NCBI GenBank assembly: GCA_000004695.1
Contig: CM000154.2
Location: 4,704,001 to 4,768,000, forward strand
Source: Dictyostelium discoideum
Lineage: Eukaryota
Length of the DNA stretch: 64,000 nt
Direction of reading: 5' to 3'
Position 1 is the stretch's first letter. Every line of letters starts with the position of its first letter. Position numbers and translations under genes: made by a program. The notes under the pieces were generated by a model. It was not told the DNA's origin, searched no databases, and was given only the letters and a program-made list of their open reading frames with translations. Below, piece by piece: positions 25,019 to 32,420 of this stretch.

Positions 25019-29692
<4,674 letters not shown>

Positions 29693-29889
29693 AAAAAAAA
29701 AAAAAACAAAAAAAAAAAAAAAACCATTTAAACATTCTTAATAAAAATTTATTAATTTTTTTTTTTTATATATTTTAAACTTGGGTATTAAAAAAAAAAA
29801 AAACTATTATTTACCAAAAATTACCATTTTATTTGTTTGTTTTATTTCTTTATTATTTTTTTTAAAATGGTTTTAGTTTTGTTTTAATA

Positions 29890-30178
29890 TTAACAAAATC
29901 TACGACGACAACCAATATCGATGTCAAGGTTTATGATATTGGTGTTTGAACCACCACAACCACCAATACCACCCCATCCACTTGAACCACCCATCCACCC
30001 TAAACCACCACCACAACCGCCATGAAAGCATGAAATTGAATTATTAGCAAATTCATTAAAAATTAGAGGCACCAATTGAACTTTCCATTGAACCAGTTGA
30101 ATTTGAAATTGATGAAATTGGTTTTGTTATATAATATATTATTGAAAAAAAAAAAAAAAAAAGAAATATTTACTAAAA
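29890..30178 (-). pseudogene. Degenerate member of the HssA/B-like small Gly/Cys-rich protein family. It has lost the exon-2 acceptor and carries a frameshifting 5-nt deletion.
   Basis: It retains the family leader ATGGAAATTTTTA+gtaaat and the C-terminal [24 protein letters not shown]. The acceptor position has AC instead of [20 protein letters not shown] is then followed by a frame shift relative to the paralogues. Confidence 0.5.
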
Positions 30179-30512
30179 ATTTCCATTTTATTTGTTGTAT
30201 TTATAAAAATGTTTTTGTTTTAATTTTTCTAATTTTTTTTTTTTTCAAAACAAATAGTTAATTAAATTGTTTGATTAATTTATTTAAATAAAAAAAAAAA
30301 AAAAAAATTTAAATTGATGGGAATTTCCATTTTTAAATAATTTTGTTTAATTATTTTTAACATATTTTGTTGTTTTATTAAAAAAATATAATCAAACAAT
30401 TTAATAAATTATATATATTAAAAAAAAAAATAAAATAAAAAATAAAAAATAAAATAAAATCATTTATATAAAAATAAAGTTAAATTTAATTATAAAAAAT
30501 CAATACAAATTA

Positions 30513-30847
30513 ATGGCAATTTTTAGTAACTATTATTTCTTTACTTTTTTTCTGAAATTAATTTCTCAATTACTTACCAATTCAGAACTTAATATATTAT
30601 AGAATCAATATCATCAATTTCAAACCCAACTGGTTCAATGGGAAGTTCAATTGGTACCTCTAATATTGATGGATTAACTAATAACAATAATTCAATTGCA
30701 TGTTTTGATAGTGACTATAGTGGTTTAAATGGATTAGGTGGTCTTGGTGGTTTCAATGGTGGTGGTTGTGGTGGTTGTGGTGATTCAAACACAAACATTA
30801 TTAATATTGATATCGATTTATGTCGTCGTGGTCATAGATGTTGTTAG
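30513..30847 (+). CDS. HssA/B-like small Gly/Ser/Cys-rich protein. Two exons (13-nt exon 30513..30525 and 30603..30847).
   Basis: Spliced product [85 protein letters not shown]. Donor gtaact and acceptor tattatAG. No in-frame ATG lies upstream of the listed internal Met without splicing. Confidence 0.6.
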
Positions 30848-31254
30848 TTTACTCTTAAAAATTTAAATAAATTAATTTTTACAAAAGTTTTTTTCTTTTT
30901 TTAAAAAAATAACAATAAATAAAATATTTAATTTATTTTAACCCACACTTACTTTTTTTTATTTATTCAATGTCTAAATTAAGCTACAATTTAAAAAATT
31001 AATAAAAAAATAAAAAAAAATTAAAAAAATAAACCCAAGAACTTTCAAAATGAATTTAATATCTGTATTTTTTTATTTTAAAAACTTATAATAATAGTTT
31101 TTATCTTTTTTATTTTTAAAAAGAAGAAAAGAAAAGAAAAAAAAAAAAAATAGAATAAAATAAAATAATATTATAATGTATTGATTGCCATTTCTATAAA
31201 TTTAAAAAAAAAAAAAAGATAAAAACTATTATTTTATTTATTAATTTGAATAAA

Positions 31255-31562
31255 TTAACAACATCTACGATGACGACGACGACCAATATCAATGTCAAGG
31301 TTAATAATATTAACATTTGAACCACCACAACCACCACAACCACCCCATCTTCCCAAATCATTATCAAAACATGCTGTTGAATTATCATTGAAAACTGATC
31401 CAGTATAATTAAGGGTGGCGATTGAACTTGATGTTGATCTTGTTGGATTTGAAATTGATGAAATTGAATCTAAATAATTAATTATTTTAAAAATGTTAAT
31501 ATTTTCTAAAGTATTTACTTGATTCATTCAAGGGAAAAAAAAAATTTACTAAAAATTGTCAT
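31255..31562 (-). CDS. HssA/B-like small protein. Two exons (13-nt exon 31562..31550 and 31469..31255).
   Basis: [75 protein letters not shown]. Leader ATGACAATTTTTA+gtaaat, acceptor ttatttAG. Confidence 0.6.
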
Positions 31563-31852
31563 TTTTATAATTTTTATTTGTTTTTGTTTGTATTTTGTTT
31601 TTATTTGTTTAATAATAAAAAAAAAAATTAAAATTTATAGTTTTTTAATTTGTAAAAAAAAAAAATTAAAAAAAAAAAATTAAATAAAATTGTATAAAAA
31701 CACCCATATTTTGTTGTTTAATAATGGAAATTCCCATCAATTTAAATTTTCTTTTCTTATCAAACGATTTAATTAACTATTTATAATGAAAAATTAAAAA
31801 TTTTAAAAAATAAAATCATTTTAAAAATAAAAAAAACAAAAAAAACAAATAA

Positions 31853-31885
31853 ATGGCAATTTTTAGTAAATATTATTTTTTCTGT

Positions 31886-31920
<35 letters not shown>

Positions 31921-32178
31921 TGACTAACTATAATTTACCATACCCTATTTTATAAAATGTCAGAATCAATTTCATCAATTTCAAATTCAACTGGTTCAAT
32001 GGGAAGTTCAATTGGTACATCTAATATTGTTGAATTAACTGGTAACAATAATTCAATTTCATGTTTTGATGGTGGCTATGGTGGTTTTAATGGATTAAGT
32101 GGTTGTGGTGGTTCAAACGCAAATATCATCAATATTGATATCGATATTGGCCGTCGTCGTCGTCATAGATGTTGTTAA
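31853..32178 (+). CDS. HssA/B-like small protein. Either two exons (13-nt exon 31853..31865 and 31964..32178) or an unspliced start at 31957.
   Basis: [75 protein letters not shown]. This copy also has an in-frame ATG at 31957 (MSESISS..), so both models are open. Confidence 0.65.
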
Positions 32179-32357
32179 TTTTTACTAAATTATTTTCTTT
32201 AAAAATTTAAATAAATTAATTTTTACTAAATTATTTTCTTTTTAAAAAATACAATAAATAAAAAATTTAATTTATTTGAACCCTACAATAACTTATTTTT
32301 TAATTAGACTATTTCAAAATTCCACTCAAATAAATATAATAGTAATATAATAATTAC

Positions 32358-32420
<63 letters not shown>

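Follow-up and report, generated by a model that had tools for sequence, protein, structure and literature searches.

We were interested in whether a short block of DNA that recurs in front of several small genes is the first exon of these genes, and how copies of it come to stand before a disrupted gene and before no gene at all. The locus lies on chromosome 5 of Dictyostelium discoideum AX4, flanked by a RasGEF gene and by rpa49, DDB_G0290909, the RNA polymerase I A49 gene. Throughout the 64-kb stretch of DNA that was analyzed (the window), tblastn found four gene bodies of the hssA/2C/7E family, which is also known as sigN-related, UniProt UPF0512, and Pfam PF05710. The matches span 29893-30130 (-), 30596-30844 (+), 31258-31470 (-), and 31963-32175 (+) and are referred to as genes 1-4; the order minus, plus, minus, plus, with none further in the window, agrees with the four paralogues in alternating orientation described by an earlier reading from the letters alone (the sequence-only reading). 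Searching the full 64 kb for Rfam families and tRNA genes returned no matches. The region is almost certainly a small cluster of this group-4-specific family, consisting of two-exon genes and subject to birth-and-death decay. Three of the genes are intact and the fourth is a decayed copy; together they form two head-to-head pairs (Table 1).

Table 1. Features of the cluster, with positions counted in the window; exons and introns follow the predicted two-exon models.
Feature	Position	Strand	Remarks
Leader copies	29809-29827(-), 30168-30186(-), 30513-30531(+), 31544-31562(-), 31853-31871(+)		Pattern search
Orphan leader ATGGTAATTTTTGGTAAAT	29809..29827	-	ATG intact, 13-nt ORF, GTAAAT donor, no gene body after it
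Gene 1 exon 2, decayed	29890..30123	-	N- and C-terminal parts in different frames (two tblastn pieces)
Gene 1 former intron	30124..30173	-	GTAAAT donor intact; AG missing where the homologous acceptor would be
Gene 1 exon-1 ORF	30174..30186	-	ATGGAAATTTTTA, MEIF plus 1 nt
Genes 1/2 head-to-head intergenic promoter region	30187..30512	.	Palindromic arms and boxes
Box ATCAAACAATTTAA	30262-30275(-), 30391-30404(+)		Genes 1/2 intergenic
Box ATGGGAATTTCCAT	30317-30330		Genes 1/2 intergenic
Gene 2 exon-1 ORF	30513..30525	+	ATGGCAATTTTTA
Gene 2 intron	30526..30602	+	77 nt, GTAACT...TAG, 19.5% GC, phase 1
Gene 2 exon 2 with stop codon	30603..30847	+	Spliced product 85 aa
Gene 3 exon 2 with stop codon	31255..31469	-	Spliced product 75 aa
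Gene 3 intron	31470..31549	-	80 nt, GTAAAT...TAG, 15% GC, phase 1
Gene 3 exon-1 ORF	31550..31562	-	ATGACAATTTTTA
Genes 3/4 head-to-head intergenic promoter region	31563..31852	.	Boxes, shared element
Box ATGGGAATTTCCAT	31724-31737	-	Genes 3/4 intergenic
Box ATCAAACGATTTAA	31759-31772	+	Genes 3/4 intergenic
Gene 4 exon-1 ORF	31853..31865	+	ATGGCAATTTTTA
Gene 4 intron	31866..31963	+	98 nt, GTAAAT...CAG, 15.3% GC, phase 1
Gene 4 exon 2 with stop codon	31964..32178	+	Spliced product 75 aa

The recurring block is a 19-nt leader, ATGRNAATTTTTNGTAANT, which occurs exactly five times in the 64 kb, always within 29809-31871. Shuffled sequences gave a chance expectation for 64 kb of 0.00 copies at zero mismatches and 0.30 at up to one mismatch. 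Five exact matches against none expected substantiate the shared block that had been noticed before each gene, together with its one extra copy. One leader type is written ATGNNNNTTTTNNGTAA. The leader block is 89–95% identical between copies and exon 2 is 72–90% identical over aligned positions; the rest of the intron shows 35–57% identity when measured against the longer sequence. The leader is shared through inheritance by descent. The ATG, the exact length of 13 nt, and the GTAA donor are kept together in all 16 family genes compared from five assemblies.

Exon 1 would consist of the 5′ UTR and 13 nt of ORF, encoding Met, Ala or Thr, Ile, and Phe plus one nucleotide, and would run directly into a GTAA(A/C)T donor, followed by a single phase-1 intron (77–98 nt, 80–85% A+T) and an AG acceptor. 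Splicing would create codon 5 (Lys or Asn), abutting an invariant or nearly invariant SISSISN motif, and yield a product of 75–85 residues with a high content of Gly, Ser, Asn, and Cys, which ends in an Arg-rich stretch and Cys-Cys and for which disorder is predicted. The base composition fits this partition, with a GC content of 15–19.5% in the introns vs. 33–35% in exon 2. An ACTAAC branch-point-like motif can be read from the sequence near 31922 in the gene 4 intron. The spliced products of genes 2, 3, and 4 are all in frame and start with MAIFKSISSIS, MTIFNSISSIS, and MAIFKSISSIS, respectively (85, 75, and 75 residues). They are identical over their full lengths to UPF0512 protein U (Q54FF2, U512U, XP_635470.2), UPF0512 protein C (Q54FF1, U512C, XP_635471.1), and UPF0512 protein D (Q54FF0, U512D, XP_635472.2) of AX4. 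Joining the 13-nt exon to the AG, as had been proposed, does give in-frame proteins, and the spliced models reproduce the public ones. On the basis of homology, curated annotation, and family-level cDNA evidence, we infer that genes 2, 3, and 4 are spliced and expressed via the 13-nt exon 1.

Do the genes need the splice at all? Genes 2 and 3 (30603 and 31469) had been said to have no in-frame ATG without it, which proved incorrect. Gene 2 has an internal in-frame ATG at 30638 (Met17), and in gene 3 an ATG at 31527, within the intron, opens an ORF of 90 residues that includes the whole of exon 2. In gene 4, too, an in-frame ATG is present, located at 31957 where the intron ends. Given the ATGs at 31527 and 31957, the sequence alone would also permit unspliced or downstream-initiated translation of genes 3 and 4. 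The leader could then be a promoter or 5′-UTR element of single-exon genes starting with MSESISS (31957), MNQVNT (31527), and MGSSIG (30638), for which the existence of these ATGs speaks. We regard this as highly improbable. None of the three unspliced products is found in a collection of 15 billion protein sequences, in which all three spliced products are present. The three alternative N-termini bear no likeness to one another, whereas the spliced ones fit the consensus M-x-I-F-x-SISSISN. The joint conservation of the ATG, the 13-nt length, and the GTAA donor across the 16 genes likewise argues against it, as do the 13-nt exon reported in 89 of 96 related genes and the cDNA support for sigN1 (Vicente et al., 2008). 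Reading on from the leader ATGs through the donor would end at a stop after 12–29 codons. The two-exon structure thus remains the preferred reading.

The identity of the family follows from the same comparisons. All three AX4 proteins (Q54FF2, Q54FF1, and Q54FF0) carry the public name "hssA/2C/7E family protein," and besides these exact matches, the products are 50–81% identical to further named members, which answers the protein comparison with the hssA family that the sequence-only reading had suggested. Its label "HssA/B-like" holds for the family, which is hssA/2C/7E according to NCBI and dictyBase, and fails for the name, UniProt having UPF0512 U, C, and D; the mismatch is one of nomenclature only. 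Pfam PF05710 scores 31.5 bits for gene 3, above the gathering threshold of 21.4 bits, and 19.4 and 14.7 bits for genes 2 and 4, below it, with no match for the gene 1 ORF; it matches 21 of 34 relatives at an E-value of 0.01 or better. The same domain is called "HssA/B-related domain" in a D. giganteum preprint. Gly, Ser, Asn, and Cys make up 45–54% of the residues in the three products, all shorter than 120 residues. An AlphaFold2 model of the gene 3 product, computed with 34 relatives, was of low confidence; it had a mean pLDDT of 45 and a pTM of 0.12 and contained no secondary structure. Expression of the family is reported after aggregation, in prestalk or cup cells, and a clade of nine genes is exclusively and very highly expressed in cup cells (Kin et al., 2018, PMC6198379). 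By analogy with other family members, the products presumably act as small secreted or matrix-associated developmental proteins.

All 38 matches belong to group-4 Dictyostelium, namely to D. discoideum, D. cf. discoideum, D. firmibasis, D. citrinum, or D. purpureum. In four other assemblies (labelled D. cf. discoideum, D. firmibasis, and, in two cases, D. discoideum), the proteins of the independently annotated relatives also require a 13-nt exon 1 and a phase-1 intron of 69–90 nt. None of the four loci of relatives in non-AX4 assemblies (L001-L004) is syntenic with the window, and an orthologue search with the RasGEF C-terminal region found no match. Curated annotation of AX4 already contains the two-exon structure, which appeared in print as a hallmark of the family in 2008 and again in 2018; the two-exon interpretation is upheld and is not new. 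A 13-nt exon-1 ORF was described in 89 of 96 sigN-related genes, with the sigN1 gene structure backed by cDNA (Vicente et al., 2008, BMC Microbiol 8:1, PMC2257962), and a 13-bp first exon with a second exon of about 200 bp in nearly 100 genes restricted to group 4 (Kin et al., 2018, BMC Genomics 19:764). The guessed identifiers DDB_G0290897 to DDB_G0290907 are absent from the supplements of Kin et al. (2018) and from the paper texts searched.

Gene 1 is very probably a pseudogene, as its sequence suggests and as had been proposed. It is closest to UPF0512 protein L, with 71 and 83% identity over the two tblastn pieces, but it is disrupted: the homologous acceptor site lacks AG, the alignment shows a deletion of 5 nt near 30060 that splits the frame, and the end reads Phe-Cys where the family has an invariant or nearly invariant Cys-Cys. 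None of its hypothetical products (81, 67, 61, and 40 residues) is present in the protein collection, and the AX4 matches include no gene 1 product. Of the limits given earlier, 29890-30178, the first stands and the other end lies at 30186; the acceptor AG, said to be replaced by AC, is indeed lost, and the position reads AA in an ungapped comparison.

Could gene 1 nevertheless be alive? No AG occurs between its intact donor and 30082, and splicing to this first AG downstream (30082-30081, AAG) would remove a 93-nt intron and give a 67-residue product with the family C-terminal motif. The acceptor shift of 43 nt and the deletion of 5 nt add up to 48 nt, a multiple of three, so that the frame is restored and no stop intervenes before that of the family. 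AAG serves as the acceptor of an annotated D. firmibasis family gene (L002 8985), and a TATAAC branch-point-like motif, read from the sequence, survives upstream. We consider a functional gene 1 unlikely all the same. Accidental restoration of the frame has a one-in-three chance, the product would lack the SISSISN motif and end in Phe-Cys instead of Cys-Cys, and the stretch upstream of the AG is former coding sequence, not the AT-rich end of an intron. The absence of the 67-residue sequence from the protein collection and the AX4 matches also counts against it. Moreover, decay would be common in the family, since a comparably decayed partner copy is present in D. cf. discoideum. On this unlikely reading, gene 1 would represent a compensated double lesion, in which loss of the usual acceptor leaves the next AG to be used and the leader is joined to an Arg-rich C-terminal tail without SISSISN as a new N-terminal variant. 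Loss of function therefore remains our reading of gene 1.

The fifth leader copy lies 62 nt past the stop codon of gene 1, and its unspliced reading stops after 6 codons. Over 31 nt, it shares 84% identity with the gene 1 leader; a separate alignment takes in the upstream ACAAATAAA and the downstream T-run as well. In the window, tblastn found no family body after it. An orphan leader without gene body, reported earlier, is thus corroborated as a copy with zero mismatches. Judging by its sequence, it is probably the footprint of a lost family member, of which a truncated remnant of roughly 60 nt would persist.

Alternatively, the orphan could be an AT-rich part of the 3′ flank of gene 1 that resembles the leader by chance or convergence, e.g., a poly(A)-signal region in which AAATAAA precedes a T-run. 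Genes 2 and 4 do have a block of loose similarity, AAATAAATTAATTTTTAC(T/A)AA, in their 3′ flanks, and the intron-like part AATAATAGTTTTT occurs again in the 3′ flank of gene 3 and at 31090-31102. The 3′ flanks of the family also score slightly higher against the leader consensus than AT-rich controls (mean 14.1 vs. 12.2, p = 0.007). We nevertheless find a chance origin improbable. The 19-nt pattern is matched without mismatch, with 0.00 matches expected in 64 kb, and the consensus score of 26 lies in a range otherwise reached only by the top 1% of control windows, from which the true leaders were not excluded, while every other 3′ flank scores 18 or less. Only 2 of 27 positions differ from the gene 1 leader, over a stretch that includes the upstream AAATAAA and an intact ATG and GT. 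A leader-like block in the 3′ flank of every gene, as the relic of a head-to-tail tandem, was rejected: only the gene 1 orphan reaches the scores of true leaders, the others lying at or near the AT-rich background. A second decayed leader copy is possible at 31180-31194. It is conceivable, though not likely, that the module of 5′ UTR, 13-nt ORF, and donor, which stands on its own in the orphan, can be duplicated or retained without a gene body.

The spaces between the genes carry further traces of this history. Each pair would share a common promoter region of about 300 nt that is extremely AT-rich and partly palindromic. Between genes 1 and 2, two arms (30192-30301 and 30365-30474) are 74% complementary. 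A 45-nt element is common to both intergenic regions with 91% complementarity, and the genes 3/4 region around this central element is an inverted copy of the genes 1/2 intergenic region. Among the promoter boxes of the pairs are ATGGGAATTTCCAT and ATCAAACRATTTAA, and D. discoideum shares conserved AT-rich promoter boxes with D. cf. discoideum. The origin of gene groups from a duplicated inverted gene pair with palindromic intergenic regions was proposed previously (Vicente et al., 2008). The family has probably grown by duplication of whole inverted pairs, each copied with its promoter, leaders, introns, bodies, and 3′ flanks; in the birth-and-death decay that ensued, gene 1 has lost its acceptor and reading frame. 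By promoter homology, genes 1 and 4 belong together, as do genes 2 and 3, whereas exon 2 and the 3′ flank group gene 2 with gene 4. Because of this mosaic pairing, one simple pair duplication is too simple a history.

The splice structure, hidden in the ORF track, was correctly deduced from the raw sequence. Some details may be undocumented, namely the decayed fourth copy, whose frame a cryptic acceptor could rescue, the leader-only fragment, and the conserved AT-rich promoter boxes. They are examples of birth-and-death turnover in a family that is specific to its lineage and has about 100 members.

The cluster genes have the same structure as the sigN-related genes, in which a 13-nt exon-1 ORF is followed by a single short intron and by some 200–280 nt of exon 2. 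Both encode small Ser/Gly/Cys-rich products and are clustered in inverted pairs, between which the intergenic promoters are partly palindromic (Vicente et al., 2008). Gene 3 is probably sigN179 of that study, located on chromosome 5 and listed with 75 residues, exons of 13 and 214 nt, and an intron of 79 nt, which is the same structure except for off-by-one counting. The 2008 table has no recognizable entry for genes 2 and 4, whose public models have since been revised (version.2); an older gene 2 model had 102 residues (P0002). The chromosome 5 genes are distant members with respect to SigN1, sigN179 being listed at 25% identity. G-rich GBF boxes have been described for the sigN promoters; the conserved boxes seen in the cluster are AT-rich. 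The hssA/7E/2C family of Kin et al. (2018) is, by name, that of the cluster genes. Within UPF0512, genes 2, 3, and 4 are the members U, C, and D, with no difference for the intact genes. The consensus MxIFxSISSISN...NIINxDIDIGRRxRRCC is common to the cluster and the family in D. discoideum, D. cf. discoideum, and D. firmibasis, and the D. citrinum and D. purpureum members are more distant.

tblastn with family proteins as the query located exactly four gene bodies of the hssA/2C/7E family in the 64 kb, hereafter genes 1-4, the remaining matches being low-complexity noise. Their strands bear out the sequence-only reading of four paralogues in alternating orientation. The window has a G+C content of 21.6%, and the cluster is flanked by a RasGEF gene (ORF end 29692) and the RNA polymerase I A49 gene, with a mitochondrial carrier gene and an SMC gene further along. 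The RasGEF ORF (25019-29692, plus strand) encodes 1557 aa with very long poly-Asn, poly-Gln and Ser/Pro tracts. Its exact sequence is absent from the protein collection, so the public model presumably differs from it, e.g., by an intron or upstream exon; a word-index homology search returned no matches for the RasGEF_N region of this ORF. An (AAT)n microsatellite of ~23 units (32350-32420) lies immediately past the gene 4 3' flank.

Table. Positions of gene bodies, spliced coding sequences and short repeated elements in the cluster
Feature	Position	Strand	Remark
Gene 1 body	29893-30130	-	tblastn
Gene 2 body	30596-30844	+	tblastn
Gene 3 body	31258-31470	-	tblastn
Gene 4 body	31963-32175	+	tblastn
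Gene 2 spliced CDS	30513-30525 + 30603-30847	+	85 aa, MAIFKSISSIS..., in frame
Gene 3 spliced CDS	31562-31550 + 31469-31255	-	75 aa, MTIFNSISSIS..., in frame
Gene 4 spliced CDS	31853-31865 + 31964-32178	+	75 aa, MAIFKSISSIS..., in frame
Box ATCAAACRATTTAA	30262-30275	-	3 observed vs 0.04 expected
Box ATCAAACRATTTAA	30391-30404	+
Box ATCAAACRATTTAA	31759-31772	+
AATAATAGTTTTT	29799-29811	-	exactly three copies within cluster
AATAATAGTTTTT	31090-31102	+
AATAATAGTTTTT	31221-31233	-

The leader pattern ATGRNAATTTTTNGTAANT occurs five times in the window, always within 29809-31871, whereas dinucleotide-preserving shuffles predict 0.00 perfect matches and 0.30 when one mismatch is allowed. Joining its 13-nt ORF to the proposed AG gave in-frame products for genes 2, 3 and 4, as had been predicted. 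The introns (77, 80 and 98 nt, respectively) start with GTAACT or GTAAAT, end with AG and contain 15-19.5% G+C, compared with 33-35% in exon 2. Without splicing, the leader ATG of each of these three genes runs into a stop after 12-29 codons. The claim that the genes at 30603 and 31469 have no in-frame ATG without the splice was incorrect: gene 3 has an intronic in-frame ATG at 31527 opening a 90-aa ORF across the whole exon 2, gene 2 an internal one at 30638, and gene 4 one at 31957. The case for splicing therefore cannot rest on a missing alternative start. The term 13-nt micro-exon holds for the coding part and not for the whole transcribed first exon, which also carries 5' UTR. The 19-nt leader is the best-conserved block (89-95% identity between copies), followed by exon 2 (72-90% over aligned positions) and the intron remainder (35-57%, measured against the longer sequence). 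We infer from this pattern that the start context, the N-terminal residues and the donor site are jointly constrained.

Exact-sequence look-up settled the identity of the three spliced products. Genes 2, 3 and 4 encode, identical in every residue, the AX4 UPF0512 proteins U (Q54FF2/XP_635470.2), C (Q54FF1/XP_635471.1) and D (Q54FF0/XP_635472.2), all named "hssA/2C/7E family protein" at NCBI, in line with the suggested hssA-family similarity. None of the three unspliced alternative products was present among ~15 billion sequences. An older public model of gene 2 (P0002, 102 aa, C-terminus ...RCFFIFFIFKKKKRKEKKKK), superseded by the current 85-aa model, evidently acquired its C-terminus by splicing into AT-rich DNA near 31100-31140 (region 30845-31130, plus strand). 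This older model and the accession versions.2 indicate that curators revised the models to their present form. The family's domain, PF05710, called "HssA/B-related domain" in a recent genome preprint, has a gathering score of 21.4 bits, which gene 3 exceeds (31.5), whereas genes 2 (19.4) and 4 (14.7) fall below; it matched 21 of 34 relatives at an E-value of 0.01 or better. The family consensus reads MxIFxSISSISN...NIINxDIDIGRRxRRCC. Every relative recovered by homology search came from D. discoideum, D. cf. discoideum, D. firmibasis, D. citrinum or D. purpureum, a range that agrees with the literature description of the family as group 4-specific (PMC6198379).

Gene 1 retains its leader and GTAAAT donor, and there is no AG from the donor to 30082. 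A 5-nt deletion places the N-terminal part and the C-terminal part (...RRRFC) in different frames. Both proposed lesions, the missing acceptor AG and the deletion, were confirmed, and gene 1 is very probably a pseudogene. The caveat is that the donor could splice to the first downstream AG (30082-30081; region 30080-30186, minus strand), giving a 93-nt intron and an intact 67-aa ORF, MEIFIQLVPLIF...RRRFC, whose frame is kept since 43 nt of acceptor shift and 5 nt of deletion add up to 48 nt. Such restoration would, however, arise by accident with a one-in-three chance, and the 67-aa product lacks SISSISN. The predicted protein ends in Phe-Cys, compared with Cys-Cys in the family, and look-up found no gene 1 product among the AX4 proteins retrieved or in the protein collection. 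A similarly decayed copy occurs in D. cf. discoideum (locus L001, JBTAPI010000002.1; 7337-7655, minus strand): behind the leader ATGGCAATTTTTAGTAAAT lies a decayed body that carries in-frame stops and has a disrupted SISSIS region, and an intact gene faces it head-to-head. Decay of one member of a pair is therefore nothing exceptional in this family. The overlapping assembly gene call at L001 6629-7405 (130 aa, no Pfam match) is probably spurious.

The fifth leader (29809-29827, minus strand), proposed to lack a gene body, matches the pattern perfectly, and tblastn found no body after it, since the RasGEF 3' end fills that space. Over 31 nt it shares 84% identity with the gene 1 leader, and it has the upstream ACAAATAAA and downstream T-run in common with the true leaders. 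Against the leader consensus it scores 26, a level that only the top 1% of AT-rich control windows attain, in a pool that still included true leaders; the other 15 family 3' flanks score at most 18. Judged by these matches, this orphan leader is a genuine paralogous fragment, truncated to roughly 60 nt, which may derive from a lost gene or from a partial duplication. ATGGCAATcaat (31180-31194, minus strand), 63 nt past the gene 3 stop, may be a second, more decayed remnant, the orphan lying 62 nt past the gene 1 stop. Statistical support for this is weak, with a score of 17 that 3.6% of control windows also attain, and the flanks between stop and leader do not align for the two genes. The AATAATAGTTTTT copies, together with an inverted repeat (31066-31122/31201-31257) that duplicates a portion of the gene 3 3' flank in the interval where genes 2 and 3 converge, suggest further rearranged fragments of family units.

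Genes 1-2 and 3-4 form two head-to-head pairs with partly palindromic intergenic regions; the arms 30192-30301 and 30365-30474 are 74% complementary. Both pairs have in common an inverted 45-nt element (30296-30340, plus; 31714-31758, minus; 91% identical), alike in orientation relative to genes 1 and 4. Its core is the near-palindrome ATGGGAATTTCCAT (30317-30330 and 31724-31737), and it includes GGGAATTTCC, which we take to resemble a Rel/NF-kB-type site. A partial copy, AATAATGGAAATT, lies upstream of a D. cf. discoideum relative (L001 9274-9286, minus strand). The AT-rich box ATCAAACRATTTAA, ATCAAAC(A/G)ATTTAA, a feature of the MAIFK-type genes, sits ~76-122 nt before the ATGs of genes 1, 2 and 4 and is conserved ahead of two L001 leaders (7655 and 9145, both minus), while the MTIFN-type genes (gene 3; L001 8001 and 9453) share ACAAAATTAAAAAACTATA in its place. 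By promoter homology, genes 1 and 4 group together, as do genes 2 and 3, whereas by exon 2 (90% identity) and the 3' flank (94%, both over aligned positions) gene 2 groups with gene 4; this conflict points to a mosaic history of duplication followed by conversion or rearrangement. aacccacacttac in the gene 2 3' flank (30940-30952, plus strand; GTGTGGG on the reverse strand) and CACCC between genes 3 and 4 (31703-31708) resemble, as putative sites, the G-box/GBF motif (T/G)G(T/G)G(T/G)G(T/G) quoted by Vicente et al. (PMC2257962).

Evidence on function concerns the family as a whole. Its genes are induced once cells have aggregated, the sigN genes in prestalk cells and one clade in cup cells, and some members depend on SrfA or GBF. 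Antibodies to SigN group 2 proteins disaggregate mounds. A frame-shifted hssA still suppresses a STATa-related culmination defect, hinting at an RNA-level effect. The AlphaFold2 model of gene 3, of low confidence and with no secondary structure, is consistent with a disordered, low-complexity peptide.

The gene structure was checked independently in four further assemblies, one labelled D. cf. discoideum, one D. firmibasis and two D. discoideum. The proteins of their annotated relatives were reproduced only when a 13-nt exon 1 was followed by a 69-90 nt intron in phase 1, and each of the 16 family gene ends counted across the window and the four loci has such a leader upstream. The 13-nt first coding exon is a published hallmark of the family: the sigN cDNA was mapped to two exons, of which the first contributes 13 nt of ORF, and an exon-1 ORF of this length was counted in 89 of 96 family genes (Vicente et al., 2008; PMC2257962). 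A 13-bp first exon is given again by Kin et al. (2018; PMC6198379). Gene 3 is probably sigN179, listed in Additional file 1 on chromosome 5 with exons of 13 + 214 nt, a 79-nt intron and 75 aa (PMC2257962), which fits save for an off-by-one in the published counting; this probable match would place the cluster on chromosome 5. For the origin of the gene groups, the same authors proposed duplication of a tandem unit in which two genes are inverted and the intergenic regions are palindromic (Vicente et al., 2008; PMC2257962). The sequence-only reading of the splice structure is correct, and rediscovers annotated and published knowledge.
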